Below, in pieces: positions 20,001 to 62,760 of a stretch of 64,000 nucleotides of DNA. The translations under genes and the position numbers were made by a program. How positions within the stretch are numbered: position 1 is the stretch's first letter; every line of letters begins with the position of its first letter. Source of the stretch: Balanoglossus misakiensis (taxonomy: Eukaryota > Animalia > Hemichordata); contig CM082580.2 of the NCBI GenBank assembly GCA_040954595.2, positions 1,850,783 to 1,914,782 of the forward strand, in the 5' to 3' direction. A model generated the notes under the pieces. The model was not told the origin of the DNA. It did not search any database and saw only the letters and a program-made list of their open reading frames with translations.

Positions 20001-20397
20001 ATGGGGGGGGGGGGGTAATTGCTATTACCGGTATATCAACTCGATTTCATAACCTTTTTAAAGATTAAAATTGATAAGAATGGGATGCATTCAATTCTGG
20101 AGAATGTTGTTTGCAACCAATCTCTGTATCAACTTAAATTTAAAGTAAATAAGAATTAAAGTAGCGACGACAAATAAGATGACGAACATGTTTTGGTCTT
20201 TCATTCCAAATAGACTCATCACAGGCATCAGAAAATTTAAACCTTTGGAGTTTCACTCTTTCTTCTGACATTTTGCTTGCTCTTGATGAAAAAAGAGAGG
20301 TTTTCTTGGCATTACTCGATCTTTCCGCAGCATTTGATACTGTGAACCATACCATTTTATATGGAAAGCCATGACTGTCTTATGATGTGTGACAACT

Positions 20398-20745
20398 TTA
20401 TGTGGTGAGGTTATTACTTGACGTGATGGGGAAATGCAACGACGTGGGGAGGTTATTGCTTTACGTGATGAGGACATGCAACGACGTGGGGAGGTTATTT
20501 CTTGACGTGATGGGGAAATGCAACGACGTGGGGAGGTTATTATTTTGGCGTGATGGGGACATGCAACGACGTGGGGAGGTTAATTCTTGACGTGATGGGG
20601 ACATGCAAAGACGTGGGGAGGTTATTTCTTGACGTGATGGGGAAATGCAACGATGTGGTGAGGTTATTTCTTGACGTGATGAGGACATGCAACGACGTGG
20701 GGAGGTTATTGCTTTACGTGATGAGGACATGCCATTATGATGTGA
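20398..20745. repeat. Left subterminal 42-bp tandem array (about 8 units)
   Basis: Unit GACGTGGGGAGGTTATTTCTTGACGTGATGGGGAAATGCAAC. It produces 14-aa periodicity in the spurious ORFs here. Confidence 0.92.
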
Positions 20746-20794
20746 CGAGGGCGCTGTTACGGAGGGCGCTCTTTTTCTATTGATAAAAGTCAAA

Positions 20795-23700
20795 ATGGAG
20801 GACTTGCTGAGGAGAGGGGGGCTCATACGACTCCTCCCAAGATTTCAGGAGGAAAGAATCGATATTACAACAGTATTGTCCTTAACCAATGAAGAATTGG
20901 CTCGATTGGGAGTTACCAAAGTAGGTGATCGTTCTAGACTGAGGGATTTATGCAGACCCCACCACATCAAATGAGTTTTCTCGAAGTGACCAAGCTGGCG
21001 TCGCCAGCACTAGTGGCACTGCAAGTTCAAGTCACGTACAAAGGGAGCGGTCACTTTTGTTTACGCCTAATCAAAGCAGAGCACAACACAGTTACGGCCG
21101 AAGAAGTCGTGCAAAGAAATGTAAGCGGACATGGACTGGACAGTTTGTTTGTCTTGCTGATCGTAACACCAGTAGCGTCCCATCGTCTGAAATCAAGCAG
21201 ATACTAACTCGTGCTGGACTTGGACTGAAACGGCTAACTCTTGACAACGAATGTAATAGCAGAGACTTGATGGATACTTTGATGTCTGATGCTGGATTTC
21301 CACAAATACGTGATTGTGGGGGTGTAGAACTGCTATATTATGCTCATGCTAAGAAACTAAATGTAATCACATGCAGTTGGTCAGTTCCTGATTTGAAAGC
21401 TAATTTAGGGGCTCAGAGTAAGATATACATAAGACCTGTGCAGAAAAACTTGTCTACTAAACCCATCAATCCAGAGACTGCTGAAGATCCAATAACCCAG
21501 ATGTGTATGGGCTGTTTAAATGAATATGATATTCGTGAATTACGTGAACACATGATGACCTGCACAGCACCTTTTGATTCTGATGAAGAAGAGGTTACAT
21601 ATTGTGACAGGAATGAAGAACAGGATGATAATACTATTATTATTGATCCAGTAGAAAACACAAGGTGAGTTAATCTGCCAATGCTCTCTTTGTTGATAAG
21701 TATAGTTTATCTTATTCTGATGTAATACATGTCAAACAATGCAAAATGTTTTAATTTAATGAAAGCTTCTTTGTATACCTGTATGTACATGTATTTTTGT
21801 AACGCATTTTGTACCTTAATGGTAAATAACAACAAAGCATGTCCGACAGTCATAACAATAGTGCCATTTCCCAATGTGTGAATAGTGGTTTTTCTCCCTG
21901 GTGATGGCAGTAATTGCAAGAATTGTGTGTGGTTTACCTGCCAAACACGGACACTATCTAGTATATCATACAATGTATCTGTGCACAATGTCAGTGTATT
22001 AAATGCAGGGCAGCAAGGTCAAAGGATGGAATTTCTCTGAGTTTTAATGTATGCATTGCTTGTTTTCCCCCAGTGACACCACTAGTGGTACCACAATTGT
22101 AACACCAAATGAGAGTGTTGGCCAGTCTGCTGCTGCTTCAGATCCAGAAATCACTGTAAGTTATCATTGATGGCAATTTGATGTAACTGCTTGTATCAGT
22201 ATGTGTGAAATGCTGGATTCATAGACAGCAGTGTTTCATCCAGGATGGCATCAATGGGGTGGGGCATCATGCCATGCCCCCTTTGCTAGAATATTTGAGG
22301 GGGATTTCACTCTGGCTAGGGGGTATGTAACATCTCCAACATGTGAGTGACCAATTTGTAAGGGGCACTACCCCCATAACAAATTACTAAGGGGTGAAAC
22401 CCATCACCCCTCCCCCGATCTACATGAAACACTGGGGACATAGTAACCTATCCATATCACTTTGATATTTGCAAGTAAACATTGTACAAATCAATTGTGA
22501 AACTTGTAAAATAGACACATTAGATATAACAGATCTAAAGTCCCAGTCAATGTCACTATTGATTATTTTTTCACAGGTTATGTTTTGTGTGTCAATTGCA
22601 AACTCTTGTTTTACTCCTGAAAGCATGGTAAAATTGACCTGTAAATGTGTAAACAGCATGGGTATTGTTGACAAGTACATTCTAGTCTGGACTGAAATTA
22701 AAACCGCAGCAATATCAGTGAAGCTTTGTCTCTGTTTTAACAAGCTGAACATTGGGTATTTCAACATTCTATCAGAAGTAGAACAAGAATGAGCAATTGA
22801 CGCACACACAAAAAAAGTAAAAAAACATCAAAGTGACAATTTGATTTACTGGGGCTTAACCCTTTCACCCCAGTTCCCACTTTCGAGGTCCAACTTTACC
22901 ATAGGGTGAAACATTGGGGTTGGACAGAACCATGGTGGTGAAAGGGACATTTGGCACCATGTGGAACTGAAATCTTAAAATCCAATTCTGCATTAATTGT
23001 GTTAATTCACACAAAGTAATGTGAATGATTTTTCATTTTTTGTAGCCATACCACACCAGTGAGATGTGTACAGTGGATGATGTTGTGAATACAACTTATG
23101 AATACTGCAACGACAACAATGTATCCGATCCTGTTGAAATTTTGAGAATTTTTCAAAGTAAAATGGTAACTGGTCGGAAATTGGACATCGAAGATTCAGG
23201 TGATGTTGTCGAAGGTGAAACCAATTTCATTATGGTCAACAGATCTGAAGTCTTACGCACAGCATTTGATGAGATTGGTTTGATCAACGACCCAAGACTG
23301 ACTTTGGAAGTGGAATTCTATGGAGAGGTATGTATTTTGCAAGTTTTCTATATATATACATTCCTCATCGAATTGAAAATGGATAAACTTGGCATGTACT
23401 GCACTCAAGACGTAAGAAGTGATTAAGCAACAAATCTTTACAAATTACAGGAGGCCAGGGACTTTGGTGGCCCCAGGAAAGAATTTTTTACTGAAGTACT
23501 GAGGGAAATAAATGACAAGTACTTTGAAACTGGTTTAAAACCACATCTTGAGGAAGACTATAAAATTATTGGCACCATAATGGGTAAGTTGTACAATACT
23601 TATTTAAGAGCCATGCACAGCAATTTGAACATTTTGTTTGTTTCTCAATGAATTATAATAAACATGGTTGTCCATTATTCATATTGACATTTCAATATTC

Positions 23701-24891
23701 TTTGCTAATCAATGTATAGGACTAAGCACACTACAGAATGGAAGAATTCCACAGTTCATGAGTGAAGAAGTGCGACAAGAGCTATTTGAAAAGCCTTCTC
23801 CATCCCCATGCATTGAGAAACTGAGACAAGGGTTTGACAAACTTGGCATTTGCAAGGTATGTCGTTATTCAGTCAACAAGTTGGTATGATAAAAGTATAA
23901 TTTGTAATAAATTCCCTTGTCAACCTCACAAGCTACATTGATTAGCTCATAGTCCTTATAGCAATCTTCTTGTAACTAGAACAATTTAATGTTAAATCAT
24001 TGCTATTTAAAGGGGAAATCTGGCCTAGCTGATTTCTACATAATTTGGTAGCTTTGAGGTCACTCTTTCAGAATAAAACATATTTGACATGTATAAGTCG
24101 CGCAATTTTTTACAAAATCGAGGGAAAGTTGGCAGAATTTCCAATATGGCATTTACTGTAATTTGAATCATGGAAAAAAGCGCCAGGACCAACTTCCGCC
24201 CACCATGGTGTGGGTGATACCATTCTCCGATTGGTGTCACTTGGCGACAGACTAGGTGTATTTGCATAGCTATTGTTTGTACTTTGCGTCAGTTGATAAA
24301 TAATCATCAGCAAAGTTGAAAATCTATTGACAGCTTTCATGAGCTATAACCCGTGAAAAAATATGCAAATACGCCTAGCCTGTCACGCAGTGACACCAAT
24401 CGGAAAATGGTATCACCCACACCAAGGTGGGCGGAAGTTGGTTCTGGCGCTTTTTTCCATGATTCAAATTACAGTAAATGCCATATTGGAAATTCTGCCA
24501 ACTTTCCCTCGATTTTGTAAAAAATCGCGCGACTTATACATGGCGAATATGTTTTATTCTGAAAGAGTGACCTCAAAGCTACCAAATTATGTAGAAATCA
24601 GCTAGACCGGATTTCCCCTTTAAGTAGTCTTACAGTTGTTTGTTTCATTGCAGCTTGTTAAGAAACTACCCCTGCTTGTGCATTTATTTGTGCCAAATGC
24701 CAACAGTGCCTTGACATTCAGAAAGCTGAAGACCCAATTAAAACCCAAGTTCAGTCCCGATGGATCTAATAATCGCAGAGAAGAGAACAACGTGTACGCG
24801 AGCTTCATTTCGTACATGACAGAAGCTGCAGGCAAGTATTTTTGCAGACATAAAACACAAAAGGGGGATTCTGTCTGTCTGTATGCATGCA

Positions 24892-24929
<38 letters not shown>

Positions 24930-25582
24930 TTTGTTTGTATACTTACCATTTTTATTGACAAATCCGATCCTCTAAACCACTTGTCACATTGCTTTCAAAT
25001 TTGAATGGCATGTTACTATGATTTGTTGAGTGAAACTGCTTCTTATATTTGTGTTTGTATGGACACTTTTTGCCATTTTTGGTCCCCAAAAAAACAAAAA
25101 CATTTCTCTAGAACCGCATGTCAGATTGCCATGATACTTGATAGGCAAGTTAATTTTCTCTACATTTCTGTATTTATAATATTTGCTTAGATCATGTCTG
25201 CTAACAAATTTCATGTGCATGTTATTTTTATTCCAGTGTACACATATTTCTGTGCAATCCCTAAATGGGACAAAAGTGTTATTGACGGTGTTTTTATACT
25301 TCTCTCTTCAATTTAGGTGGTAGGAGATGCGATGGTGACATCACCCTCAATCATATACTGAAATTTGTCACATGTGATCTTGAGGAACCAGTTCTTGGCT
25401 ATACAGAAGCTCCTGCTATTGATTTTTATGAAGCAGGATCTTCTTTCATTCCGACAGCCAACACCTGTATTAATATGTTGAAGCTGCCCAGAGGTACCCA
25501 GGACAATCCACTTCCAGACAGAGACATTCTGTTTAAACTATATGATTATGCGTTTTCAAATAACTATTTTGGTGCGGTATAA
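20795..25582 (+). CDS. 7-exon SAM / UBZ-like zinc finger / HECT E3 ubiquitin ligase (about 648 aa after correcting one frameshift near 20957-20960)
   Basis: Exons 20795-21664, 22074-22155, 23046-23327, 23451-23583, 23720-23856, 24654-24831 and 25317-25582 join with consistent phases (five GT-AG introns, one GC-AG). The N-terminal SAM reads LLPRFQEERIDITTVLSLTNEELARLGVTKVGDR. A CxxC-x11-H-x3-C motif lies at 21504-21563. HECT motifs are LEVEFYGEEARDFGGPRKEFF, ILKFVT, PTANTCINMLKLP (Cys codon 25466-25468) and the terminal YFGAV*. Confidence 0.88.
22860..22946. mobile_element. Tiny piggyBac-like MITE in intron 2
   Basis: TTAA|CCCTTTCACC ... GGTGAAAGGG. The right-hand TTAA is missing. Confidence 0.45.
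24011..24619. mobile_element. Fold-back Kolobok-like MITE in intron 5 of the HECT gene
   Basis: TTAA at 24007-24010 and 24620-24623 flanks AGGGGAAATC...GATTTCCCCT. The arms are about 260 bp and near-perfect, as shown by the mirror ORFs 24025-24267(-) and 24363-24605(+). Confidence 0.92.
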
Positions 25583-25667
25583 CTTTTTATACCACTCCAG
25601 GTCATGTGACCTATTGTTCTTGCCATCCATTTTTTCTAGGCAAATTAGTAATCAGCTACCGTATACT

Positions 25668-26095
25668 TTTATTAGCTCTGCTCTCACTTGTGTCAGCCGA
25701 GCTATAGCAGTAGGTTGATAAGTGTCCGTCCGGCGTCCGTCAACTTTTGGTATTTCAATCTTCTTCTTTAAAACAACTTGACATATTTAGCTGAAATTTG
25801 GTTGGAATATGTTTTATGGTGTCCTTAACTGATTTTGTTAATTTGGATTTGATAGGGTCATGAATATGCAAATTAGAACCTTGGTGCTTCCTTTTGTTGT
25901 TCTTTAGGATTCAATTCTTTCTTTCTTTAGCACAATGAATCAAGCTGAATTTGGATAAATACTTGTGATGTCTATGTTTGGTTTTGTTCAATAGAATACA
26001 ATTGTTATGAATTAAAACCTAGGGTATTCATATCATTGCCCAGGTTACACTGTTAAAGTCAGCAGAGCTCTTTTGACCGACAGGTCACGTGTTTC
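25668..26095. mobile_element. Possible non-autonomous Helentron/DINE-like element
   Basis: It starts in a T-run with TTATTAGCTCTGCT, has a GTCC-type microsatellite near the 5' end, an inverted AGCAGAGCT and a short terminal stem (TGACC-GAC-AGGTCA) before TTT. The call rests on architecture only. Confidence 0.45.
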
Positions 26096-27008
26096 ATTAT
26101 ATGTCCTAGGATATATAATACAGTTTAAGCATTTAAAAAATCCAGTTGGTGTGTTCATTGAAAGCAATCTAGTAAGTCTCTCAAAAGTTACATGTTGTAT
26201 GTATTGGTAGTGATTTTTCTAAGATAGTTTTTCTGGGGTCACTGATCAAGAATTACTTTGGTTAATACTTGGCCAGGATGCTCTCTGTTAAGATTGTTGT
26301 GTTCAGTGTAGCTTGCAACTTTTACAAAGTTGAATAAAAAAGAGTTATCTTGAAAAAAAGTTGTTTCTATTGTGATATTTTGAGGCTCATGCTATAGAGT
26401 CAGTTGGTCAATGAGTAGTCGTGCACCCGACTGATATTGCAAATAGTCATGTGACCTGGTGGTCATACTGGGTTTTCTGAAAAAAGTAAAAATGGCATTT
26501 TATCCTTAACTAAAGTACAAATCAAGTTTTATTTTGGTGTGCGATATACATGTCTTCTGCCCTTCAAAGTTTGCCAATAAATCAAGAGTAATCACATGAC
26601 TTTTGCCGCCATATTGAATTTAAAAATATCCCAGAACCAGTTATTACTGAGTTGTACGATTATGTGTATGTGTTCCCCTAATTGAGGTCTTGAAAGATTA
26701 TCAGATTTCAGAGCGGTGTACTGAGGGTGGCCATATTGTTTTTCCCAAAAAATACAAAACGACTTGCATTCCAAAACCAGACTGCTATTTTAATAATTAT
26801 GATTGAGAAATACAAATGTGTGGTTCGTTCATGTTCAAGCATGGCAAATGTACACATTCTTATTTCTCCAGTAGTTCTAGGCCATGCTTGAATTCCAGAC
26901 ATATCATGAAGCAAATTTGAATGTTAGTTGCAGGAATATACTACTATACACTGCAACTCATGTGGTAACCGTATTCAGAATGATTGGTTGCCTTGCATAA
27001 CAATTATA

Positions 27009-28379
27009 TCAAGGATTTCCTGTAAAGTTTTGAATAATTGATAATGCATTCCTGTCTATGTCAATACCATGATTTTCTGATTGCCATGTTGGTGATATTG
27101 ATCGTGAAAGTAGAGCCAAGCATTCATCAGTTGGTTGCATGGAAGGGCCATCCAAGATTGGTCTGGAGTGATTTGTGGGTTCAAAGTCAACGTCTCCTTC
27201 GACTCCATACTCGTCAATATCACTGTCAGACAGGTCGATCCCAATGGGATTTTGTAACTGACCTGCAACCCATAAACGAAGTGGTGATGAACCCACTGTC
27301 CTCAATCTGTGACAAATCCAGGCATTTCGCCAGAGTTCTAATTTGTGATTGATCCTTTCCAGAAACACATAATGAAGGGCTGCAATGTGAACAGGATTTA
27401 ATGGATCCAGAATGGAATTGTCCTCCAAAAAGTAAAATACCTCATAGTACAGAGCAAGCACTCCTTCATAAGCATCACGCCATAACCTTTCAATTCTCTG
27501 GTTATGCACACTGCTACCTGTGATCATACTGCCACAGTTAACTCCTCGCTTTTCTATCATAAAATCCGCAATATAGACATTTTCCATGCCTTTGTCAGAT
27601 CAAACCCTGCTTGGAATGCCATAGGTTCTAACAGCTGATTTAAAGCATGCCAATAAGGTATCTGCTCTGTTGTTATCCCTGCATTGTAGCATTACAGGAA
27701 GTCGGCTGAATCCATCAATGCCACCAATGATAACTATTCCCCAACGTATGAGTTTGTGGTTTGTATCAATATGCCAGAGTTGATTTGGGCCTTTAACATT
27801 GTACACACGCCTCAGTAATCTACCACGTTTCCTTGCTTCAACTCCATTTCCATCAATGCGGTGTACACTATCCCTAAGTCTCTGGTGTTGTACTTTAATT
27901 CCAGTCTTTTCCATGAGCAAGTGCGTCAACATGTTATGCCCACAATAGGGGAACTCTTTTGTTAGTTCCTCCATATGAACATCAAGTTCTTCATCTAAAA
28001 TATCACTAAACATCATTTTGCTGAGCCCATACTGTCTCATTCTACGGTATATTGTACTTCCTGACACAATGAGCATTGAGGCTATTTCTGAGATCTTGAA
28101 TCCTTGGTCCAAATGGGTTTCCAAAATGTGTCTAGGTATGAGAAATTGAGGAGCACCAGAAGAACTTTGCACTTGTGGAGGAGTTCCACTGCCAAATGTT
28201 ACACATGCTGTACGCAAAGCCATTTGATCAGCAGGGTTTTTCAAATTAACAGATTCCAGTTCATACCTTGACAAGTTACACACAATGTCAGGTGTTATGT
28301 TCTCCATGTCAAATGTCCTGGATAGATGCCCAAGGTTTCGTTGAAGCAGTAAAGCTGACATATTTGTCACTGAATCCAT
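27009..28379 (-). pseudogene. IS3/IS481-like DDE transposase (integrase core) with N-terminal SAM and HTH domains, about 456 aa, one in-frame stop
   Basis: ORFs 27600-28403 and 27009-27587 share a frame and are separated by TGA at 27602-27600 (PSRV*SDKGMEN). Catalytic motifs are WHIDTNHKL...GGIDGFSR, SDKG and GSSVHNQRIERLWRD. The HTH reads GFKISEIASMLIVSGSTIYRRM. Confidence 0.93.
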
Positions 28380-28539
28380 TTTTGCAAAATCTGCAAACTC
28401 CAATTCAATATGGCAGACTGAATATGAAGCTACGCATCATGGGATATCCATAAAATATCAACCATTAGATACAAAATAATCAACATATAAGAACTAGCTG
28501 TCATCCCACATAATATATATTCTCAACACATAAGGAAAA

Positions 28540-29182
28540 AACCTCACCACATCATACCATTACGTCATCACATAAGGAGATAACCTCACCACATCGTTAC
28601 ATTACATCATCACATAAGGAAATAACCTCACCACATCATGACATTACATCATCACATAAGGAAAAAACCTCACCACATCATGACATTACGTCATCACATA
28701 AGGAAAAAAACCTCACCAAAACATGCCATTACGTCATCACATAAGGAAATAACCTCACCACATCATTACATTACGTCATCACATAAGGAAAAAACCTCAC
28801 CACATCATGACATTACGTCATCACATAAGGAAAAAACCTCACCACATCATGCCATTACGTCATCACATAAGGAAATAACCTCACCACATCATTACATTAC
28901 GTCATCACATAAGGAAAAAACCTCACCACATCATGCTATTACGTCATCACATAAGGAAATAACCTCACCACATCATTACATTACGTCATCACATAAGGAA
29001 AAAACCTCACCACATCATGACATTACGTCATCACATAAGGAAAAAACCTCACCACATCATGCCATTACGTCATCACATAAGGAAATAACCTCACCACATC
29101 ATTACATTACGTCATCACGTCAAGAAATAACCTCCCCACATCGTTGCATTTCCCCATCACGTCAAGTAATAACCTCACCACA
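28540..29182. repeat. Right subterminal 42-bp tandem array (about 15 units), inverted relative to the left array
   Basis: Unit ACCTCACCACATCATGACATTACGTCATCACATAAGGAAAAA. ORF 28638-29285 shows the 14-aa period. Confidence 0.93.
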
Positions 29183-30506
29183 TAAAGTTGTCACACATCA
29201 TAAGACAGTCATGGCTTTCCATAATTTTACTCAATCGCTTAAGAGACTGCTTTGGTCTTTCAGATACTGTTCTCATGTGGTTTAAATCATACCTTTCCAA
29301 TCGTAGTCAGTGTGTACTTGTAAATTCCACCCAATCACCTTTCTATCCACTCGACACTGGGGTACCACAGGGATCAGTTCTTGGTCCCATACTTTTCAAT
29401 ATGTACACGTCTCCATTAGGTGAATTAGTTCCTTTTTCAATGTCGAATTTTATGTTTTGACTGAACTTGCGTGTCACCTGACAGGTCTTCGCATTCATCA
29501 GAAGCTATCGTGCGTCGCTGAGATTTGATTCTTCATAAAAGAAAATTATTTCATAACCATACCAAATAAAACATTTCCAGAAATTTAGAAGTTTGCAGAC
29601 TTTTCTGCTAGTTGTCTATTTAGTGTTGAAGTCACGCTGAACTGCCAAATTTAACACAGACTCGCCGTCAACACTCAAACAGTGTACTTCTTCTACGAGT
29701 GTGTCCTGTAACTGCCTTCCTTCAATAACCATACAACAACAAATAGACGGTAAACGTTTATGCAATACCAATGGATTTATGTTTTTAAACTGGTCGACAG
29801 TCGGGAAGTATGCATGAACAATCGATTGATTGGATTCCCCAGCGATACTATTGTATCTTGTGATTTTTTGTAGTAAAACTGTGGAAATCGGCAGGCTGCA
29901 TTGCCAGTTGTTCTGCACATGCGCAGTTCCTCTGTCTTGAAAGAAAAGTCAAATTTCACCAACTTATAAATGTGCATTCGGAAAATAAACCCCAAATGTT
30001 TTCTTTGTGACCAAAAATACTGCCAGTGTGATTTTGTGCTCAAATCCAAGCTATTATTATTTAAATTGACTTGTGATACCCTCTCTTAGCACAAAAAGCA
30101 TAATTTCAGCCCCAAAATGGTTGCCATAGAAACATGTGATCACTAAACGGATATCAATTTTTTGTGGAAATCGGACCAATTATTATTAAAATTATTATTT
30201 TTATATAATTCTTTATTTAATTAAAATCTGACTTTGAGGCACATATTACCTTAATTTTGATCAAAATTTAATTAGCCAACCAAGGAACATGCATACTGGT
30301 ACCTTCCTTCTAGTATTTAAGAGGGAACCAGTTTTGGCCAAATCATTGGGAATTATAGCAACATTCTGCTGGTCAATGCATGTACAATGGTGACAACACC
30401 AGTCTTCAGGTACTACTATTCCCTGAAAGCCTCATGAAATGCCAAATTTCACATTTTTTTCCAAAAATCAAATCTTCTACCTTTTATATAAAATCTTCAT
30501 CATTAA

Positions 30507-42555: not shown

Positions 42556-43824
42556 CGCTTTTCAAACTGTCACTCGTATCTTCTTGAGAAAACTCACAAC
42601 TTGGGTTTTAAACAAAAACAATGTTGTGGAATAAACAACTACAAACACTAAGTAAAGGTCAGAAAAATTGCATCAAAACTAAAAAAAAGTATTCAAACAA
42701 GATAAATGATTACAATCAAAGATAAAATAAAAGATTTCAAACAATTTGCAGATTTGCCATTCAGGCAAATACAGCCAAAGCAAGAGATGTCAAGCAAATC
42801 GAGCAACTCTTACAACAAGGTGGAAAGTACACAAGTCATGCAGACTGAATGTTTAACAGTGACTGATTGAATGTTGATGCCATAGCATATTGGATGGTAT
42901 TGTGAAATGTGTCTGTCTACAGTGTGTTTCAATGTAGCTCCCAGCAGTATTCACTTTGCGTGAATTTCTCCAGGTCTTCAACCAATTTGTCAGTCTTGTG
43001 GATCATTTGTGAGGTGCTATGATTAACCCCTGCAACTGTCAATCCAGCAGAGGCAATGTTATTAACAATGAATTGCACATGCATAACTGACTTAGAGGGC
43101 CCAGAGGGAAAACCAGCTTCATTCAAAAACAAAGAATAGCCGGTGCCTTGGGGGTCTAAACCATGGGATTTGCAACAATAACACTGTTGTCCCCTGATAT
43201 CAATGCATCCGTAGAAGAATTTGAAAAGCTTGGTGATAAAAATGCAGCAAATATGCAACATGCAAATGAGAGTAGTCCCTATAATGACAGGAAGCCTTTT
43301 AATGGTCTCATAAAATAAACTAGCAGAAAAGTCGTAAAAAATTTCCCTGTGATGCATCGTTGGAGATCATACATTTTAAGAAATTTTTTCTATGGATATG
43401 AAAATAGTGGTACTTAAAGAGTGTGACAACCTATGAACAAGGATTAATCCGCACTACTTCAGCCTTGAAACAGAAATGCATTAAATTTTTGATAAAAACT
43501 ATACTACGGTTCTTACAAAATATGTGCTGTCTTTTACCTGGCTACATGTTCCCTTTTGTTGAAAGAAGTTTGACACATCAAAGTCCAGCCAGCTTTTGAA
43601 AGCATGGGAACATTGTGACCCGCAGCAGGTTAGAAAGGGGGACAGATCACATTTTCGGGGGACAATATATCAGGACAGTGTTCTCCCTGGGAAAAATCAT
43701 AGAGTCAGGGCTAATTCCCATAAAATTTACATAATCATAGCTTCTTTTGGACAAATTTTACCACGGCAGTTACTTATCAAGTATGCTGACATTGGCACAT
43801 CGTACTTACTAAGAAAGAATATTT

Positions 43825-43968
43825 TAGCAATAAGCCCCGCCGCAGGCGGGTATACACGAGATTTGGGTACAATTCGAGACATATAGCACGAGCTGTCAGG
43901 CGAGTGCTATATGGAGCGAATTGTACCCAAATCGAGTGTATACCCGACTGAGGCGGGGGTTATTGCTA
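43825..43968 (+). repeat. 144-bp imperfect palindrome with tandem GA/GA mismatches
   Basis: TAGCAATAAGCCCCGCC...TACAC-GA-GATTTGGGTACAATTCG...TAGCAC-GA-GC TGTCAG GC-GA-GTGCTA...CGAATTGTACCCAAATC-GA-GTGTA...GGCGGGGGTTATTGCTA. Confidence 0.88.
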
Positions 43969-45330
43969 TTATATTAACAATTGTTTTCGTGGCATATCAG
44001 TGTCATTTTCTTACCGAAACGGCGTCAGAAAGAGAAATTACGATCATGAAACATGGCGACGATGAATGTAAACACGAGCGGCCGGGATTGAGCATTAAAC
44101 ATGAAGCAGACGACAAAAAGTGACAAGATGGGCATCGCGCGTGGCAAAGTGACAAATATTTCCACAGAGCAGTTCCAAAATAAAATGTCCGTTAATTCAA
44201 CAGTATTTTTGTTTTATTTATTTGGTTTAAACACGCGCGACTGTGGTTTAACCGCACATTTTGGCTGCCGTATGCTAGTTCAGGGGCCTGTTTTAGCACT
44301 GCTAGCAGTGCATTATTGAGTATTTTAGCATCGCTGGATTGAGCTCTCGTCCAATCAGAATTGTGGACGGTAGCATGATATAAAATAATGTCGTTTTTAT
44401 ATCCAGTGTAAAGTAGGCCTAGTGAAATACTATTACTAGTGAAAGTATTTGAAATTGACCTGGGGTTACGAAGTCCGCTCCAATAAAACACCCTGATGTT
44501 CCCACGACTTGCTATGCCCCTCAAAAACTGTGATGTTGTCATATTTTTTACGCGCTAGCAACAACCAGTAGTAAAAGAGACTGATAAATGGATGCTGATA
44601 TGATAGCCTGTTTATTGATGTTTTAAAATGGGGTAGAAATTTTATAGATGTCAGACATTTAGAGGCTAAAAAATGGCAAATATTCAACAGTGTCGAGCAG
44701 TTTTCAAGTGGGAGTTGGACACCTTCCCACTATATGACAATTTACTGGCATACGGACGGGACCTTTGACACAAGCCACTTCTTGTGTCAGCTGCTCGATC
44801 GCGCGAATGGGTGGTTCAATTCAAGACACTGCGTTGTTTATCCTGATGGTGGTTGTTGTTTCTTTTTTGTTTGTTTGTTTGTTTGTTTATTTATTTGATT
44901 GTTTGTTTCCCCGAACAGAACGCCTAATTCACCTGTGTCCTGGATGAAACACTGCCTTGCCCATGCCAAGTTCACAAGTTTTCAGTGCCGGTTGTCTTTT
45001 ACATCCTACTACATGTATCTGTTTTTTTTAGAAATTGGACATATCCTAAGACAAGACATCTCAGATTTTGTGTTAATTATGATTTACTGCCATTGGCGAA
45101 GAAATGTTATCGTGCATTGTTTTGTGTTGTTTTTTTGTTGTTGTTTTTTTTTGGGGGGGGGAGATCAACATTCAGGATCAGATTAATTACTTTGATAATA
45201 TTTTTTTTGCAATCATACCCCACCCTATTCTAAACAAAATCAAATAGTGCAAAGTAATTCAAAGTTTACCTTATCAAGTAGGCATAAATCAGGGCAGGTG
45301 GCAATGAAATTTATCTGCCCTTCGCAATTA

Positions 45331-46870
45331 TTACCGGCCCTGGGCCGCTGTTAATTTTATAAGCCTGTGCAGACGCGCAGAAACTTGGCATGACCTCCAA
45401 CAAAAGTTGCTTCATCATTTGTCATGTTTAGCTGATTTGTTACAATGCGCGCACGCGTTCAGTGCATTGCTTGTGTTACTGGGCTATTGATGCTATTTAT
45501 AGGACGCCTGTCTAAAGATAACTTGTTCACTGAATGAAATGGCAGCGCACTGCTCTTGACAGCGTGCACAGCTGCGTTGCTTCTAGGGTGATTCAAGCCG
45601 TGGAAGGTGTGAAATCACTCAGTTGTGTTCACTAAATTATCAAAAATTGAAAGGGAGTAGTAAGTTCCAGTGAAAGCAAAGGTGGACGCAAAGCAAAGTG
45701 CAGGGGTGACAATCAGTCACATTGTTGCTCACTCAGGAAGAATGCATCACAGTGACCCATGAAGATTATTCCGTTGCGATAATCCAACATTTATTGCGTC
45801 AAATGTCGCAAGGCCGCACGCTAGCTGAAACACTGAAAGAGAGAGCATATTTGGTAGGCAGTCATACAACATTGGCACTTTTGTTTAAGTGTAAAGACAA
45901 TCTGACTTTTGCCAAATATTCAGAGGGTATCAACTTCAAGGACAGAAAACGTGGACATTCCTGCCTGCTATTAAGGTTAGTGGTTAGAGGTTAATGTTAG
46001 AGGTTAGATTGGGGTTAAAGATTAAGGTGCAATTGCAATAGAAGGCTGCAATGTTCAAGTGTAACTGTCCTGAAAGCAGTCATCCGAATATCTGAAGGCC
46101 TACAAGGTCCTAACCAGTAGACTGTGATAATTTGTGATTTCTAGACACAAGCAAGACATTCCTTCACTTGGTAACAGTATAATTTTATCATACAAGTAGC
46201 TTTTGTCTGTCTATCAGAACTATCCGCTTTGCTTTGTAAAATTTCAGATAATCAGTTGGAAAAACAAATTTGTGGCTAAGAATCCTAAATAGGTGCTCTC
46301 TCTGTGTTTAAAACACTATTAATACTATCTAAAATCACAAATTATAGAAATAAATCAATATACAGTGTTTCAGCTTGCATGCGGCCTTGCGACATTTGAT
46401 GCAATAAATATTGGATTGTCACAACAAAATAAATCTTCATGGGTCACTGTGACACATTCTTACTGAGTGAACAACAATATGACAGATTGTCACCTCCCAT
46501 ACTTTTGCTGTGCATCCACCTTTGCTTTCACTGTAACTTGCTACTTCCTTTCAATTCTTGACAATTAGTGAACACAACTGAGTGATTTCACGCCTTCAAC
46601 GGCTTGAATCACCCAAGAAGCAACGCAGCTCTGCACGCTGTCAAGAGCAGTGTGCTGCCATTTCATTCAGTGCACAAGTTATCTTTAGACAGGCGTCCTG
46701 TAAATAGCATCAATAGCCTAGTAACACAAGCAACGCACTGAGCGCGTGCGCGCATTGTTAACAAATCAGCTAAACATGACAAAAGATGAAGCAACTTTTG
46801 TTGGAGGTCATGCCATGTGTCTGCGCGTCTGCACAGGCTTATAAAATTAACAGCAGCCCAGGGCCAGTAA
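45331..46870. repeat. Long inverted repeat: arms about 45331-45716 and 46485-46870 around a spacer of about 770 bp
   Basis: GGCCCTGGGCCGCTGTTAATTTTATAAGCCTGTGCAGACGCGCAGA... is the near reverse complement of ...TCTGCGCGTCTGCACAGGCTTATAAAATTAACAGCAGCCCAGGGCC. Confidence 0.9.
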
Positions 46871-48741
46871 ACTGCAAATGAACATGGTCACCACCATGAA
46901 AAAATGCTAGTTTTCTAGTGTTTTTTTTGCCAGTTTTTTTCTTATAACTAATATCTATGGACGGTTGTGTCTGAAATAAAGATTAATAATAATAATAAAA
47001 CGTTGCATTTCCCACTATATAATTTCATAAACGAAGCATGATCTCATCCACTACAACTGTGGAAGTAAATGTACTCCGCTGGGACATTACATTTTCATTT
47101 TTGATCGCAATATTGCAGGAATTTTCGATTTTCTTTAATTTTTGGCCATTTTGTCCAAAATAAGTGATCTTGATATATACTATTATGAAATATCATTTAA
47201 TAGACATAATTCAAAGGATATATGGGATTATTTAAAACTTAAATTTTTTATCCAGTTGCAGCTCATGTACCTTTAATCTAATCCTGAATGTTGATCTTTC
47301 CCCCCCCCCAAAAAAAAAAAAAATCACAGAAAAACTCGGTCACAGATATCAAAAACAGAGGAATTGCGTAAACATCAGATCAGCTGATTGCAGTCAATCC
47401 ATGTACTGTACATTTCTAGTATCATATTCAAACATCAGGAAATAAATAATGAAGGTTTATTAACGCATGCAAAAATTCATTTAAGGGTTCTGCTGAAATA
47501 TATTTGAAAAAGTTTTGATTTTTGTGAAATCTTGGTGAGGACTCAGGCAATATTTGCATTCATTGGCGTTCTCAGGAAAGTTCACGTATACGAGTGCTCG
47601 AAAGGTTGCATTACATAAACAATCTCGCCCTCGATCGACCCTCCATACCGCGTAGACAACATAACAGTGACAATTGCGGCATCACTTTTTACGTATAACT
47701 TTGTTGACATGACTGCTTGGTACATGGTACACGGTATGTATGGTGAACGAATGTCAATTCCAGTATCATCGAGAGGTTTGCTTTACGTGTGGGACCGAGT
47801 CATGTTGAAAACTGCGCGTGATTCAAGAGCAGATGACATGTAGTGCCGCATTAGGAAGAAAAAAATAAACAAATCGCTAGTCAAGGTCAGATTTAAAATT
47901 AATAAATATCGCAGTACATTGTATTTATTCTGTGAATGTTTGCATTTCTTTTTTAGCCCTTAATATGTTCGCATTGTTTGAAAGCTCCGTTATTCAGTCA
48001 GAAATTGTCCACGTCTGGCTGGTTCTTGAGTGTGTCGCGCGTCCACGTCATAACACGATACATTATCTGTAATAATTTACAGTTATGACGTCACAAAATT
48101 CACTTGATAAAGCTATAATATTAAATATTTTATATCGATGTTGAGGGGCCTTAGTGATGTCCAAAAGAAGCTATGATTATGTAAATTTTATGGAAATTAG
48201 CCCTGAATCTATGATTACTCCCAGGGAGAACCCTGTCCTGATATATTGTCCCCCGAAAATATGATTTGTCCCCCTTTATAACCTGCTGCAGGTCACAATG
48301 TTCCCAAGCTTCACAGTACAATATTTTACCCACAATTCTCCGTGATTTGTATCATTGAACGTTGCCCATTTAATAACTTTTTCTTTTTCACATGCTAACA
48401 ATGATATGAAGTACATAGAAATATATTTATTTTTATCTAGGAAAAGTATGTTAAGCAATTAGAGTGAAAATTTCAGAATCAAAATTAGAAGCCATAGGAA
48501 TCTAGATATTCATGTACTGCAAATGTCACACTTTAGGGGAAACAAGCAATGACTAACTGGGGTGGCCAGTCTCTGTTGAAAGTTAACATGTAAATTTCCT
48601 TTGTTCTGTCAATAGAAAAATCATTTTTTGTTTGATTGAACGGGTATTTCAAGTGTCCCTGTGTTACTTCAAACTTCTTTGTATAGCTGGCTATGCAATT
48701 GCTTGATTATTTTATAAAATTAGTATCTCCTCTCTCAATAA

Positions 48742-56800: not shown

Positions 56801-57509
56801 AGTGATCCAATGTAAACTTTTCTGTACATTATAAAAACAATAATTGTAACTCATAGAAAATTGACATCTTTTCTGAATATTGAAGGTTTGATGTCAAATG
56901 GGCAATTTGAATCACTGGTTATCAATTTTGAGACGGTTTTGGCAACCAGACCTGATGTAAGAATTAACACCTCATGCAACCCATTGTCTATGGGGCCGAG
57001 CCTCAGCGCCTATACATAAACTTTGTGTGTGTGGACACAAGCGACTCAAAGGATTAATTCTCTGTGTTTACAAAAGGCAAATAGTGTCTCCGAAACGTTT
57101 CAAATTTTTACCAGTGTGACCGTGGTATTATAAACATGTACCCCACACGTTGAATGACACACACACTTACACCACACAAACAAACAAACAAACATAAATA
57201 CCCTATAACTATACTATATTATAACTAACTATAACTACAAGTAACAACTGACAAAATAACTTAATATACCTATATAAATAAACTGTTCAAATACAGATGT
57301 GTACACTGAAATTAACTAAATTTACAAAAATATATAAAAATGCATTGCAGGGATGCCCCCAAAACTACCGTAAGCACTGCAAGCTGGGAGTCCATGCGTC
57401 TACGGACCTCTGTTGACAGATGAGGCATCATGGAGACTGCATGGTAATGGGACTTCTGGTCCAAATCATCTGGCCGCATTCCTCTGCTATGGTGGCATAC
57501 AATTCAATC

Positions 57510-60500
57510 TCCGCCATCCTGCAACGCAGCATCTAGTTTCTGCATGGTACCATTGGTAGTCGGACTTCAATCTGCCAGTTGGCACACAGATCAGTGTTCT
57601 CCATCCTGCAAACCAGCATCTAGTCTCTGCATGGTACTATTGGTAGTCGGACTTCAATCTGCCAGTTGGCACACGGATCAGTGTTCTCCATCCTGCAAAC
57701 CAGCATCTAGTCTCTGCATGGTACTATTGGTAGTCGGACTCCAATCTGCCAGTTGGCACACGGATCAGTGTTCTCCATCCTGCAAACCAGCATCTAGTCT
57801 CTGCATGGTGCTATTGGTAGTCGGACTCCAATCTGCCAGTTGGCACACGGATCAGTGTTCTCCATCCTGCAAACCAGCATCTAGTCTCTGCATGGTGCTA
57901 TTGGTAGTCGGACTCCAATCTGCCAGTTGGCACACGGATCAGTGTTCTCCATCCTGCAAACCAGCATCTAGTCTCTGCATGGTACTATTGGTAGTCGGAC
58001 TCCAATCTGCCAGTTGGCACACGGATCAGTGTTCTCCATCCTGCAAACCAGCATCTAGTCTCTGCATGGTACTATTGGTAGTCGGACTTCAATCTGCCAG
58101 TTGGCACACGGATCAGTGTTCTCCATCCTGCAAACCAGCCTCTAGTCTCTGCATGGTACTATTGGTAGTCGGACTTCAATCTGCCAGTTGGCACACGGAT
58201 CAGTGTTCTCCATCCTGCAAACCAGCCTCTAGTCTCTGCATGGTACTATTGGTAGTCGGACTTCAATCTGCCAGTTGGCACACGGATCAGTGTTCTCCAT
58301 CCTGCAAACCAGCCTCTAGTCTCTGCATGGTACTATTGGTAGTCGGACTTCAATCTGCCAGTTGGCACACGGATCAGTGTTCTCCATCCTGCAAACCAGC
58401 CTCTAGTCTCTGCATGGTACTATTGGTAGTCGGACTTCAATCTGCCAGTTGGCACACGGATCAGTGTTCTCCATCCTGCAAACCAGCCTCTAGTCTCTGC
58501 ATGGTACTATTGGTAGTCGGACTTCAATCTGCCAGTTGGCACACGGATCAGTGTTCTCCATCCTGCAAACCAGCCTCTAGTCTCTGCATGGTACTATTGG
58601 TAGTCGGACTTCAATCTGCCAGTTGGCACACGGATCAGTGTTCTCCATCCTGCAAACCAGCCTCTAGTCTCTGCATGGTACTATTGGTAGTCGGACTTCA
58701 ATCTGCCAGTTGGCACACGGATCAGTGTTCTCCATCCTGCAAACCAGCCTCTAGTCTCTGCATGGAACTATTGGTAGTCGGACTTCAATCTGCCAGTTGG
58801 CACACGGATCAGTGTTCTCCATCCTGCAAACCAGCCTCTAGTCTCTGCATGGTACTATTGGTAGTCGGACTTCAATCTGCCAGTTGGCACACGGATCAGT
58901 GTTCTCCATCCTGCAAACCAGCATCTAGTCTCTGCATGGTACTATTGGTAGTCGGACTTCAATCTGCCAGTTGGCACACGGATCAGTGTTCTCCATCCTG
59001 CAAACCAGCATCTAGTCTCTGCATGGTACTATTGGTAGTCGGACTTCAATCTGCCAGTTGGCACACGGATCAGTGTTCTCCATCCTGCAAACCAGCATCT
59101 AGTCTCTGCATGGTACTATTGGTAGTCGGACTTCAATCTGCCAGTTGGCACACGGATCAGTGTTCTCCATCCTGCAAACCAGCATCTAGTCTCTGCATGG
59201 TACTATTGGTAGTCGGACTTCAATCTGCCAGTTGGCACACGGATCAGTGTTCTCCATCCTGCAAACCAGCATCTAGTCTCTGCATGGTACTATTGGTAGT
59301 CGGACTTCAATCTGCCAGTTGGCACACGGATCAGTGTTCTCCATCCTGCAAACCAGCATCTAGTCTCTGCATGGTACTATTGGTAGTCGGACTTCAATCT
59401 GCCAGTTGGCACACGGATCAGTGTTCTCCATCCTGCAAACCAGCATCTAGTCTCTGCATGGTACTATTGGTAGTCGGACTTCAATCTGCCAGTTGGCACA
59501 CGGATCAGTGTTCTCCATCCTGCAAACCAGCATCTAGTCTCTGCATGGTACTATTGGTAGTCGGACTTCAATCTGCCAGTTGGCACACGGATCAGTGTTC
59601 TCCATCCTGCAAACCAGCATCTAGTCTCTGCATGGTACTATTGGTAGTCGGACTTCAATCTGCCAGTTGGCACACGGATCAGTGTTCTCCATCCTGCAAA
59701 CCAGCATCTAGTCTCTGCATGGTACTATTGGTAGTCGGACTTCAATCTGCCAGTTGGCACACGGATCAGTGTTCTCCATCCTGCAAACCAGCATCTAGTC
59801 TCTGCATGGTACTATTGGTAGTCGGACTTCAATCTGCCAGTTGGCACACGGATCAGTGTTCTCCATCCTGCAAACCAGCATCTAGTCTCTGCATGGTACT
59901 ATTGGTAGTCGGACTTCAATCTGCCAGTTGGCACACGGATCAGTGTTCTCCATCCTGCAAACCAGCATCTAGTCTCTGCATGGTACTATTGGTAGTCGGA
60001 CTTCAATCTGCCAGTTGGCACACGGATCAGTGTTCTCCATCCTGCAAACCAGCATCTAGTCTCTGCATGGTACTATTGGTAGTCGGACTTCAATCTGCCA
60101 GTTGGCACACGGATCAGTGTTCTCCATCCTGCAAACCAGCATCTAGTCTCTGCATGGTACTATTGGTAGTCGGACTTCAATCTGCCAGTTGGCACACGGA
60201 TCAGTGTTCTCCATCCTGCAAACCAGCATCTAGTCTCTGCATGGTACTATTGGTAGTCGGACTTCAATCTGCCAGTTGGCACACGGATCAGTGTTCTCCA
60301 TCCTGCAAACCAGCATCTAGTCTCTGCATGGTACTATTGGTAGTCGGACTTCAATCTGCCAGTTGGCACACGGATCAGTGTTCTCCATCCTGCAAACCAG
60401 CATCTAGTCTCTGCATGGTACTATTGGTAGTCGGACTTCAATCTGCCAGTTGGCACACGGATCAGTGATCTCCATCCTGCAAACCAGCCTCTAGTCTCTG

Positions 60501-62760
60501 CATGGTACTATTGGTAGTCGGACTTCAATCTGCCAGTTGGCACACGGATCAGTGTTCTCCATCCTGCAAACCAGCCTCTAGTCTCTGCATGGTACTATTG
60601 GTAGTCGGACTTCAATCTGCCAGTTGGCACACGGATCAGTGTTCTCCATCCTGCAAACCAGCCTCTAGTCTCTGCATGGTACTATTGGTAGTCGGACTTC
60701 AATCTGCCAGTTGGCACACGGATCAGTGTTCTCCATCCTGCAAACCAGCCTCTAGTCTCTGCATGGTACTATTGGTAGTCGGACTTCAATCTGCCAGTCG
60801 GCACACGGATCAGTGTTCTCCATCCTGCAAACCAGCCTCTAGTCTCTGCATGGTACTATTGGTAGTCGGACTTCAATCTGCCAGTCGGCACACGGATCAG
60901 TGTTCTCCATCCTGCAAACCAGCCTCTAGTCTCTGCATGGTACTATTGGTAGTCGGACTTCAATCTGCCAGTCGGCACACGGATCAGTGTTCTCCATCCT
61001 GCAAACCAGCCTCTAGTCTCTGCATGGTACTATTGGTAGTCGGACTTCAATCTGCCAGTCGGCACACGGATCAGTGTTCTCCATCCTGCAAACCAGCCTC
61101 TAGTCTCTGCATGGTACTATTGGTAGTCGGACTTCAATCTGCCAGTCGGCACACGGATCAGTGTTCTCCATCCTGCAAACCAGCCTCTAGTCTCTGCATG
61201 GTACTATTGGTAGTCGGACTTCAATCTGCCAGTCGGCACACGGATCAGTGTTCTCCATCCTGCAAACCAGCCTCTAGTCTCTGCATGGTACTATTGGTAG
61301 TCGGACTTCAATCTGCCAGTCGGCACACGGATCAGTGTTCTCCATCCTGCAAACCAGCCTCTAGTCTCTGCATGGTACTATTGGTAGTCGGACTTCAATC
61401 TGCCAGTCGGCACACGGATCAGTGTTCTCCATCCTGCAAACCAGCCTCTAGTCTCTGCATGGTACTATTGGTAGTCGGACTTCAATCTGCCAGTCGGCAC
61501 ACGGATCAGTGTTCTCCATCCTGCAAACCAGCCTCTAGTCTCTGCATGGTACTATTGGTAGTCGGACTTCAATCTGCCAGTCGGCACACGGATCAGTGTT
61601 CTCCATCCTGCAAACCAGCCTCTAGTCTCTGCATGGTACTATTGGTAGTCGGACTTCAATCTGCCAGTCGGCACACGGATCAGTGTTCTCCATCCTGCAA
61701 ACCAGCCTCTAGTCTCTGCATGGTACTATTGGTAGTCGGACTTCAATCTGCCAGTTGGCACACGGATCAGTGTTCTCCATCCTGCAAACCAGCCTCTAGT
61801 CTCTGCATGGTACTATTGGTAGTCGGACTTCAATCTGCCAGTTGGCACACGGATCAGTGTTCTCCATCCTGCAAACCAGCATCTAGTCTCTGCATGGTAC
61901 TATTGGTAGTCGGACTTCAATCTGCCAGTTGGCACACGGATCAGTGTTATCCATCCTGCAAACCAGCATCTAGTCTCTGCATGGTACTATTGGTAGTCGG
62001 ACTTCAATCTGCCAGTTGGCACACGGATCAGTGTTATCCATCCTGCAAACCAGCATCTAGTCTCTGCATGGTACTATTGGTAGTCGGACTTCAATCTGCC
62101 AGTTGGCACACGGATCAGTGTTCTCCATCCTGCAAACCAGCATCTAGTCTCTGCATGGTACTATTGGTAGTCGGACTTCAATCTGCCAGTTGGCACACAG
62201 ATCAGTGTTCTCCATCCTGCAAACCAGCATCTAGTCTCTGCATGGTACTATTGGTAGTCGGACTTCAATCTGCCAGTTGGCACACAGATCAGTGTTCTCC
62301 ATCCTGCAAACCAGCATCTAGTCTCTGCATGGTACTATTGGTAGTCGGACTTCAATCTGCCAGTTGGCACACAGATCAGTGTTCTCCATCCTGCAAACCA
62401 GCATCTAGTCTCTGCATGGTACTATTGGTAGTCGGACTTCAATCTGCCAGTTGGCACACAGATCAGTGTTCTCCATCCTGCAAACCAGCATCTAGTCTCT
62501 GCATGGTACTATTGGTAGTCGGACTTCAATCTGCCAGTTGGCACACAGATCAGTGTTCTCCATCCTGCAAACCAGCATCTAGTCTCTGCATGGTACTATT
62601 GGTAGTCGGACTTCAATCTGCCAGTTGGCACACAGATCAGTGTTCTCCATCCTGCAAACCAGCATCTAGTCTCTGCATGGTACTATTGGTAGTCGGACTT
62701 CAATCTGCCAGTTGGCACACAGATCAGTGTTCTCCATCCTGCAAACCAGCCTCTAGTTTC
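57510..62760. repeat. 87-bp minisatellite/satellite array of about 60 near-identical units
   Basis: Unit ATGGTACTATTGGTAGTCGGACTTCAATCTGCCAGTTGGCACACGGATCAGTGTTCTCCATCCTGCAAACCAGCATCTAGTCTCTGC. ORFs 57544 and 60502 show the 29-aa period. Confidence 0.98.

Follow-up and report, generated by a model that had tools for sequence, protein, structure and literature searches.

An IS3EU transposon lineage of animals pairs its transposase with a HECT-fold protein predicted to lack the E2-binding subdomain

The IS3EU and GingerRoot transposons, as presented in the available parts of PMC10045372 and PMC6839031, have TA..TA ends of the form TAYGG..CCRTA, a 6-bp target-site duplication (TSD) and an rva_4 transposase core, and the element described here shares these features, with IS3EU-1_SK as its nearest listed entry. 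Neither 'HECT' nor 'ubiquitin' is mentioned in the main text of these two papers, as far as it was available, and the structure and function of IS3EU have been termed largely unexplored (PMC11934779, excerpt). The IS3EU elements of rust fungi have the same termini and carry an alpha-kinase opposite the transposase, some with a TET/JBP gene (PMC12730594, excerpt), whereas the partner in our element is a HECT protein. Helitrons likewise are eukaryotic transposons that encode an enzyme of the ubiquitin system, but their VTD/OTU deubiquitinases are erasers fused within the rolling-circle ORF (PMC9741609, in the part available), while here we find a separate spliced gene for a putative writer. No description of an IS3EU-HECT element was found in the literature searched; Repbase entries lie outside that scope and may hold one. 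PMC5718144 gave no matches in the literature check, and an apparent co-mention of IS3EU and 'hect' came from the letters of 'trophectoderm'.

The window analysed is a stretch of 64,000 nt from Balanoglossus misakiensis (CM082580.2 of GCA_040954595.2, positions 1,850,783-1,914,782, forward strand), and all coordinates below are positions in it. The element and its surroundings are as follows.

20360..29223, no strand assigned: IS3EU DNA transposon, 8864 bp, ends TATGG..CCATA
20360..20442, + strand: left terminal inverted repeat (TIR), 83 bp, perfect
29141..29223, - strand: right TIR, 83 bp, perfect
20354..20359, + strand: left TSD, ATTTTA
29224..29229, + strand: right TSD, ATTTTA
20183..20359, + strand: 5' part of a LINE reverse transcriptase (RT) fragment, the insertion target
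29230..29457, + strand: 3' part of the LINE RT fragment, in frame with the 5' part after element removal
20402..20732, + strand: left subterminal array, 7.9 copies of a 42-bp unit
28523..29183, - strand: right subterminal array, 15.7 copies of a 42-bp unit
24011..24619, no strand assigned: palindromic MITE with a TTAA duplication, nested in intron 5 of the ligase gene

The boundaries are exact, as the preliminary description had claimed. A 6-bp TSD match at a given fixed place has a chance of 7.6e-4, and excision in silico of the element with one TSD gives a single open RT frame, both halves of which match RVT_1 (E 0.074 and 2e-5). In the contigs of two of three runs position 20353 is joined to 29224, which shows that the site also occurs empty, with a single ATTTTA; the TIR ends are joined to at least 3-4 other flanks in the runs' contigs. 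The left 42-bp array likely provides binding sites for the transposase, and 21/42-bp arrays resembling those of the window are also present in two related loci (L014 and L019). The MITE has ends that we take to be Kolobok-like.

The transposase lies on the minus strand, and its features are listed here.

27009..28379, - strand: transposase, 456 codons, with a SAM domain, HTH and a DD34E core (rva_4)
27765-27767 (D), 27594-27596 (D) and 27489-27491 (E), - strand: codons of the DD34E catalytic triad
28170..28365, - strand: N-terminal SAM domain, homologous to the ligase SAM

The rva_4 profile matches the transposase with E 7e-29 and 1e-38, and 78 of 107 core residues are identical to IS3EU-1_SK1p in a by-eye count. 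Together with TAYGG..CCRTA ends, a TIR longer than 30 bp, the 6-bp TSD and a first catalytic D at residue 205, inside the range of 100-300 residues from the start set for IS3EU, this DDE core bears out the earlier assignment to IS3EU. No HHCC finger was found on the transposase by profile search, which detected only HTH/rve families upstream of the core. A premature in-frame TGA at 27600-27602 interrupts the gene, so that the window copy does not have the open transposase frame of an autonomous IS3EU; a frameshift was considered for this lesion and excluded.

The second gene runs on the plus strand, tail to tail with the transposase, and consists of seven exons; the introns between them are GT-AG in five cases and GC-AG in one.

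20795..21664, + strand: exon 1, with SAM (20795-20953), ubiquitin-like domain (about 21117-21446) and C2HC finger (21504-21563)
22074..22155, + strand: exon 2, variable linker; the least certain exon, placed from splice signals and phase, with a similar stretch in relative P0001
23046..23327, + strand: exon 3, with the first part of the HECT N-lobe after a conserved helical pre-HECT segment
23451..23583, + strand: exon 4, N-lobe with the GGPRKEFF motif
23720..23856, + strand: exon 5, N-lobe; about 75 residues (the E2-binding small subdomain) predicted missing here
24654..24831, + strand: exon 6 (GC donor), hinge and first part of the C-lobe
25317..25582, + strand: exon 7, C-lobe, with the catalytic Cys codon at 25466-25468 (PTANTC) and Phe four residues from the end

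The spliced coding sequence has 1948 nt (649 codons plus one base), with a 1-bp frameshift near 20962 directly after the SAM domain. A programmed frameshift at this place is excluded because the contigs of both runs do not have the extra base. The window copy is thus damaged in both genes, by the ligase frameshift and the transposase stop. Profile matches on the spliced product to SAM_1 (E 7.5e-7) and, in the last exon, to HECT (E 2.7e-6) agree with the order of SAM, finger and HECT read from the DNA in the preliminary description. We also predict a ubiquitin-like domain between the SAM and the finger; no Foldseek match at E 0.001 gives it a closer name, its top Z values being tied at 6-7.7 with TBK1 the best (7.7). 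The C2HC finger scores below the cut-off on zf_C2HC_14, and therefore ubiquitin binding by the finger is only a guess.

The HECT fold of the ligase was modelled on P0136, a relative 46% identical to the window product. The model matches the HECT domain of HUWE1 (6xz1_A) with Z 22.2 and rmsd 3.2 over 272 aligned residues. Like the canonical HECT E3s (HUWE1, UBR5, Smurf1, E6AP and AREL1), the family has, as modelled, the two-lobed fold and a PTxxTC motif, intact here as PTANTC, whose catalytic Cys is retained in 66 of 67 relatives. It also shares with them the aromatic residue four from the C-terminus, a canonical feature of HECT E3s, which is F in the window product and F or Y in 61 of 64 relatives, and the N-lobe motif E.A.D.GGPR.E is retained in the family. 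Unlike the canonical enzymes, it is multicopy and mobile, has a SAM-Ubl-C2HC N-terminus and is about 75-90 residues shorter. The canonical E2 site is located on the N-lobe's small subdomain, i.e. helices 6-8 and strands 5-6 (PMC3077247, excerpt), and our model predicts that the shortening falls where this subdomain should lie: 307 residues of the model correspond to a stretch of 383 in HUWE1, a strand is absent between model residues 443 and 565, and the distance from anchor to anchor is 110 profile positions in the family vs 179 residues in E6AP. The segment at the E2 site has 21-25 residues in all 38 matched members vs 97 in L002, and the loss is predicted to extend across the SAM-bearing lineage. 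The earlier name 'HECT E3 ligase' is therefore right for the fold and the catalytic motif but not for a canonical HECT E3, since the E2-binding small subdomain is predicted to be missing; we keep 'ligase' as a label.

The pairing of transposase and ligase is a trait of the lineage. Two further complete elements, L025 (2313-8268, TSD CTTTAG) and L002 (9244-16550, TSD CTACAC), have the same ends and the same tail-to-tail layout as the window element, each with a different TSD. Among 20 loci found with the gene as query, of which only one was long enough to reveal a transposase, five (L014, L017, L019, L025 and L030, with L014 and L030 sharing one insertion site) have the terminus TATGGAA[AC]GCC about 300-530 bp upstream of the gene. 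Six contigs of at least 8 kb, matched by size, are common to 49 transposase and 73 ligase matches against 0.003 expected, where equal size is no proof of adjacency and the contigs include ones of 11.8 and 30 kb as well as a 74-Mb chromosome. Six transposase loci have about 10 kb of downstream sequence; one has a ligase on the opposite strand, one a same-strand fragment and four no profile match, so that not every IS3EU has the partner. The intron positions of the HECT part recur in L028, L014 and L015, and L022 has an uninterrupted frame of 590 codons through the HECT. An identical 648-aa protein is encoded on four Hydractinia contigs, with two near-identical copies, a dispersal pattern as for a recently mobile gene; an intact natural copy of the ligase gene is represented by XP_057290583.1 of Hydractinia. 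Of 68 and 21 pattern matches on viral contigs, none was confirmed as related to the two proteins.

The ligase gene is almost certainly a selected part of the element. We found pN<pS in all 206 ligase pairs, and dN/dS is mostly 0.23-0.35 at dS 0.17-0.31, which is the purifying selection on which the preliminary description had made its case depend. The other two grounds for refutation named there also fall away, as further elements have the gene and its product is predicted to adopt a HECT fold. Across nine presumed pairs, the pairwise identities of one protein correlate with those of the other (Mantel 0.84, p 5e-5), and likewise across seven pairs after dropping an outlier and a near-duplicate (0.79, p 0.004). 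Host ancestry can also produce such co-divergence, and the middle part of both 9-taxon trees has poor resolution.

The two proteins start with homologous SAM domains (probability 97%, E 5e-11, in a profile alignment over the whole length of the ligase SAM). Pfam SAM was detected on the transposases of the L025 orthologue, P0025 and P0085, and 94 of 120 transposase matches have a SAM region. L002 has a SAM on neither protein. Elements of this type keep the ligase without any SAM, and therefore the SAMs cannot be the ancestral link; joint loss or gain of the two SAMs rests on this one SAM-less complete element. A complex prediction for the two window SAMs, run without alignments and controls, scored 0.23 vs a mark of 0.34, which does not speak for or against their binding. 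No N-terminal SAM on an IS3EU transposase was found in the literature, and the homologous SAM starts on both proteins and the HECT predicted to be shortened at its E2-binding subdomain are new anatomy.

Our tentative first choice, which we rate a little short of an even chance, is an IS3EU lineage whose HECT-fold second gene would transfer ubiquitin through its Cys, chiefly to its own transposase, with the SAMs as a tether. Both genes would be transcribed inwards from the element ends, and the transposase would bind the TIRs and the arrays of 42-bp units. The ligase would dock on it SAM-to-SAM and might receive its ubiquitin in a non-standard way, i.e. through the ubiquitin-like domain, the zinc finger or extra pre-HECT helices. 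Ubiquitin attached by the ligase may then lead to the turnover or disassembly of the transposase or the transposition complex. Taken separately, Cys-dependent transfer is probable, and the transposase or its complex as main target is plausible at just under even. A conserved, selected HECT partner gives a testable job to the second gene of a large animal IS3EU lineage, and it bears on the older idea of transposition being regulated by captured host proteins (PMC3520738, in the part available).

The ligase could instead be an anti-silencing or host-manipulating enzyme, a reading that we consider possible though doubtful, in which the SAM, the ubiquitin-like domain and the finger recruit host proteins, e.g. 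SAM-bearing chromatin repressors or DNA-repair factors, and the transposase SAM only brings the ligase to the element. The evidence of selection and family membership fits it equally, and the TET/JBP gene of rust-fungus IS3EU has been suggested to help the element evade silencing (PMC12730594, excerpt). Foldseek places the C-terminal ubiquitin-like domain of Ring1B among its best matches to the middle domain, weakly (E 0.009), but many ubiquitin-like matches are tied with it. The transposase profile aligning to the whole ligase SAM points inside the element, in a comparison of the element's own SAMs.

An unlikely alternative is that the trimmed HECT is not charged by an E2 and shields the transposase from degradation, as a ubiquitin-binding scaffold or through another Cys reaction, such as deubiquitination or the acceptance of ubiquitin passed on by a host E3. 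The predicted absence of the E2-binding subdomain across the SAM-bearing lineage fits this, and Helitron deubiquitinases have been proposed to protect transposition proteins (PMC9741609, excerpt); a scaffold alone, however, would not need the Cys, terminal aromatic and E.A.D.GGPR.E motif that are kept. A natural HECT family with the Cys but predicted to be without this subdomain offers a test of alternative HECT charging. That a HECT gene of the host was captured only once, or that a resident gene of the host lies between TIRs by chance, might be suggested by the host-like spliceosomal introns and by the gene fragments acquired by GingerRoot elements of Selaginella (PMC6839031, excerpt), but it has next to no chance given the LINE interrupted with a TSD, the recurring HECT introns and the dispersed Hydractinia copies, and is ruled out by L025 and L002, which with the window make three complete elements with the gene and different TSDs.

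The family may be compared with G2E3 and GL-Metazoa, which are also highly divergent animal HECTs (PMC3673628, a source available in part, without mention of transposons in that part). The earlier proposal that 'G2E3-like' annotations are this transposon gene was not borne out by the named matches. In G2E3 the fingers are of the RING/PHD type and the HECT is non-functional, and the transposon family has neither trait, PHD/RING fingers being found in 0 of 20 members. The names among the listed NCBI/UniRef matches are uncharacterized, hypothetical, HECT-type E3, SAM domain-containing and one leucine-rich repeat, none of them G2E3-like. A bolder version of our preferred reading, which we hold to be rather doubtful, would see a ubiquitin switch of a widespread animal transposon, with a minimal HECT without an E2-docking subdomain, a new charging route and a twin-SAM clip, and hundreds of 'uncharacterized HECT' genes of cnidarians, molluscs and deuterostomes as transposon genes. 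In invertebrate genomes the number of HECT genes counted is inflated by the transposon ligase genes, with 481 clusters at 50% identity scoring below 1e-30 with the family profile.

The element at 20360-29223 is confirmed to hold two genes between perfect terminal inverted repeats (TIRs) of 83 bp, with termini TATGG...CCATA. The 6-bp target-site duplication (TSD) ATTTTA flanks both ends, and shifting the boundary by up to 3 bp yields no longer duplication. A single reverse transcriptase (RT) frame is regained once the element and one ATTTTA are excised in silico. Position 20353 is joined to 29224 in contigs of the sequencing runs X1 and X3, so an insert-free form of the LINE family exists. The boundaries in the preliminary description, drawn from the TIRs, the TSD and a split LINE RT, are thus borne out. 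Tandem arrays of a 42-bp unit lie inside both ends, the left one holding 7.9 units and the right one 15.7. No second copy of the element was found across the 64-kb window. On closer alignment the TIR end continues into different flanks in two contigs of X1 and two of X2 (agreement 0.57), runs that come from one sample, which points to further insertion sites. The two genes are:

20795-25582, plus strand: ligase gene, 7 exons, 649 codons plus 1 base when spliced
28379-27009, minus strand: transposase, 456 codons, in-frame TGA at 27600-27602

Both genes of the window copy are damaged, the transposase by its stop, at a position that is Arg in nearly every aligned relative, and the ligase by a frameshift. 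One base at 20962 is absent at full depth from contigs of both aligned runs, which leaves their frame open and confines the break to the window copy or its assembly. Sister copies decay in different ways. Contigs of X1 and X2 omit 281 bp that cover the start of the transposase and its SAM domain (28209-28491) as well as 514 bp within the right array (28686-29201), and an insertion in an X2 contig falls exactly where the ligase SAM ends (20927-20931).

Judged by its sequence, the transposase is of the IS3EU type, with an HTH and an rva_4 core of DD34E spacing. Kojima and Bao, in the sections consulted, characterise IS3EU by TA..TA ends, TSDs that are mostly 6 bp long, the absence of an HHCC finger and an initial catalytic D at 100-300 residues from the start (PMC10045372), and our element agrees in its ends, 6-bp TSD, lack of an HHCC finger and position of the first D. 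The termini of IS3EU elements in rust fungi are TAYGG..CCRTA (PMC12730594, in excerpt), a pattern to which TATGG..CCATA conforms. The closest entry in the consulted part of the supplement alignment of PMC10045372 is IS3EU-1_SK1p, with 78 of 107 residues identical as counted by eye. The element is a variant within the known IS3EU superfamily.

The ligase gene is a trait of a lineage within IS3EU as our data indicate. A profile search returned 200 ligase relatives, and 481 clusters among 1.84 billion representatives score below 1e-30 against the ligase profile. Twenty loci from other DNA were retrieved with the ligase gene as query, and only L025 has more than 1.5 kb behind the complete gene; it has a convergent transposase within TATGG..CCATA ends and the TSD CTTTAG. 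A TATGGAA[AC]GCC terminus lies 300-530 bp upstream of the ligase gene in five of the 20, two being one site. The transposase as query gave 13 loci, on contigs binned in microbial genomes yet microsatellite-rich with split genes, and hence likely host DNA. Six of the 13 have ~10 kb of downstream sequence. L002 is a complete element flanked by the TSD CTACAC, in which a Ubl-HECT gene (Ubl, ubiquitin-like domain) converges on the transposase, L010 has a ligase fragment on the same strand as the transposase, and the ligase profile has no match in the ~10 kb downstream of the transposase in four of the six. Since L025 and L002 carry the partner and these four give no profile match, the ligase gene is a lineage trait that, on these loci, need not be universal to IS3EU. 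The claim that the gene belongs to the element therefore stands, as these further complete copies hold both genes at TSDs differing from ATTTTA. The pairing is solid, and a one-off capture of the HECT gene, now extremely improbable, is refuted by the same two elements.

Six contigs of at least 8 kb have equal size in both match lists (49 and 73 entries) versus 0.003 expected, which implies shared contigs and not adjacency of the genes. Transposase and ligase identities co-vary (Mantel 0.84 over nine presumed pairs, 0.79 on seven), to which host ancestry could contribute. Hydractinia has one identical ligase-family protein under four RefSeq accessions on four contigs, plus two near-identical copies. 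A second structure at 7657-18029 of L002, with 626-bp inverted arms holding TACGG-type ends, encloses the complete IS3EU element. L006, L007, L012 and L013 carry IS3EU-type transposases, some split intron-like, with SAM and ligase undetected within 10 kb.

Purifying selection on the HECT gene was also found: pN is below pS in all 206 pairs, which are non-independent, in a codon comparison of 21 sequences. The dN/dS is 0.23-0.35 for most ligase pairs, at dS 0.17-0.31, and 0.37-0.86 in the six youngest, a pattern expected if selection acts between families and recent copies decay.

The ligase product, read across the break with X, is 648 residues long and can be aligned over its full length to P0136 of Ptychodera flava (46%); residues 92-561 align to P0001 of the same species (77%). 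Relatives with a named species are all animals, which makes an acorn worm or a similar animal the probable source of the window. The HECT intron positions reappear in L028, L014 and L015. The annotated N-terminus of P0001 is a translated subterminal array of the same kind as the element's. Intron 6 has a GC donor (24831-24833) and the P0001 gene model stops at the equivalent position; such genes may therefore be annotated too short at this point.

The shortened HECT and the twin SAMs are the surprising parts of the element. In the structure model of P0136 (148 sequences, mean pLDDT 83), the SAM is followed by a beta-grasp domain and then a small finger, after which a disordered linker leads into the HECT. 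The middle domain, folded from window exon 1 (pLDDT 91.5), matches ubiquitin-like folds almost throughout the 50 best structure rows (best Z 7.7, rmsd 2.3, 78 aligned), and its predicted fold is clearly ubiquitin-like, without assignment to one family. The earlier naming of the product as a HECT E3 ligase holds for the fold (Z 22.2 of the model to HUWE1) and for the catalytic Cys, retained in 66 of the 67 relatives reaching that site; the terminal aromatic residue is retained in 61 of 64. The E2-binding part fares differently. The GGP-to-Cys span is 194 residues in the window product (median 192 in 47 relatives) and 282 in L002, whose HECT is full-length, and the inter-anchor span is 110 profile positions versus 179 residues in E6AP. 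The segment just behind the QNG..P.F motif has 21-25 residues in all 38 matched members versus 97 in L002, and the P0136 model has no strand there. The small HECT subdomain hosting the E2 site contains a two-strand hairpin, according to the part of PMC3077247 consulted. From the short segment and the strandless model we conclude that the E2-binding subdomain is predicted to be missing. The modelled ligase is HECT-like in fold and catalytic motif and set apart from canonical HECT E3s.

The SAM of the ligase has a homologue at the N-terminus of the transposase (probability 97%, E 5e-11, 65 columns). The L025 transposase passes the SAM_2 cut-off of Pfam, and 94 of 120 transposase matches cover the SAM region. 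No SAM was seen on either protein of L002, another branch, and the co-occurrence of SAMs on both proteins rests on this one SAM-less complete element. Head-to-tail SAM-SAM binding is common among SAM domains, and with homologous SAMs on both proteins the most economical view is that the ligase and the transposase would meet through them.

The transposase would bind the ends and arrays, cut, and insert with a 6-bp stagger, as known for the family. We tentatively propose, at somewhat under even chances, that the ligase docks on it, is charged by a non-standard route and ubiquitinates the transposase or its complex, by which transposition would be limited or finished. Action on host targets such as silencing factors is a less likely alternative, and a non-ligase use of the catalytic cysteine is less likely still.

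No description of HECT within IS3EU, or of SAM on a transposase, was found in the literature searched, and Repbase entries may already name the second protein; the labels 1p and 2p mark two annotated proteins for some IS3EU entries in the consulted part of the PMC10045372 supplement. Precedents in kind are fungal IS3EU elements that carry kinase or TET genes (PMC12730594) and Helitrons that encode deubiquitinases (PMC9741609), and a 2012 meeting note mentions captured host proteins as regulators of transposition (PMC3520738), all three as excerpted.

Other repeats were observed in the window. Intron 5 of the ligase gene holds a palindromic MITE (24011-24619; 266-bp arms, 95%; TTAA duplication) with many related contigs in the aligned runs. 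Two further short repeats with piled related contigs and loose ends are nested in the transposon, at ~22856-22950 (intron 2) and ~25670-26050 (intergenic spacer). A satellite at ~57400-62800 has ~60 copies of an 87-bp unit at 94-95% identity. Nested inverted-repeat pairs (154, 112 and 194 bp; 94-96%) at 43600-48311 and 45331-46870 are possibly a TIR element within a TIR element.
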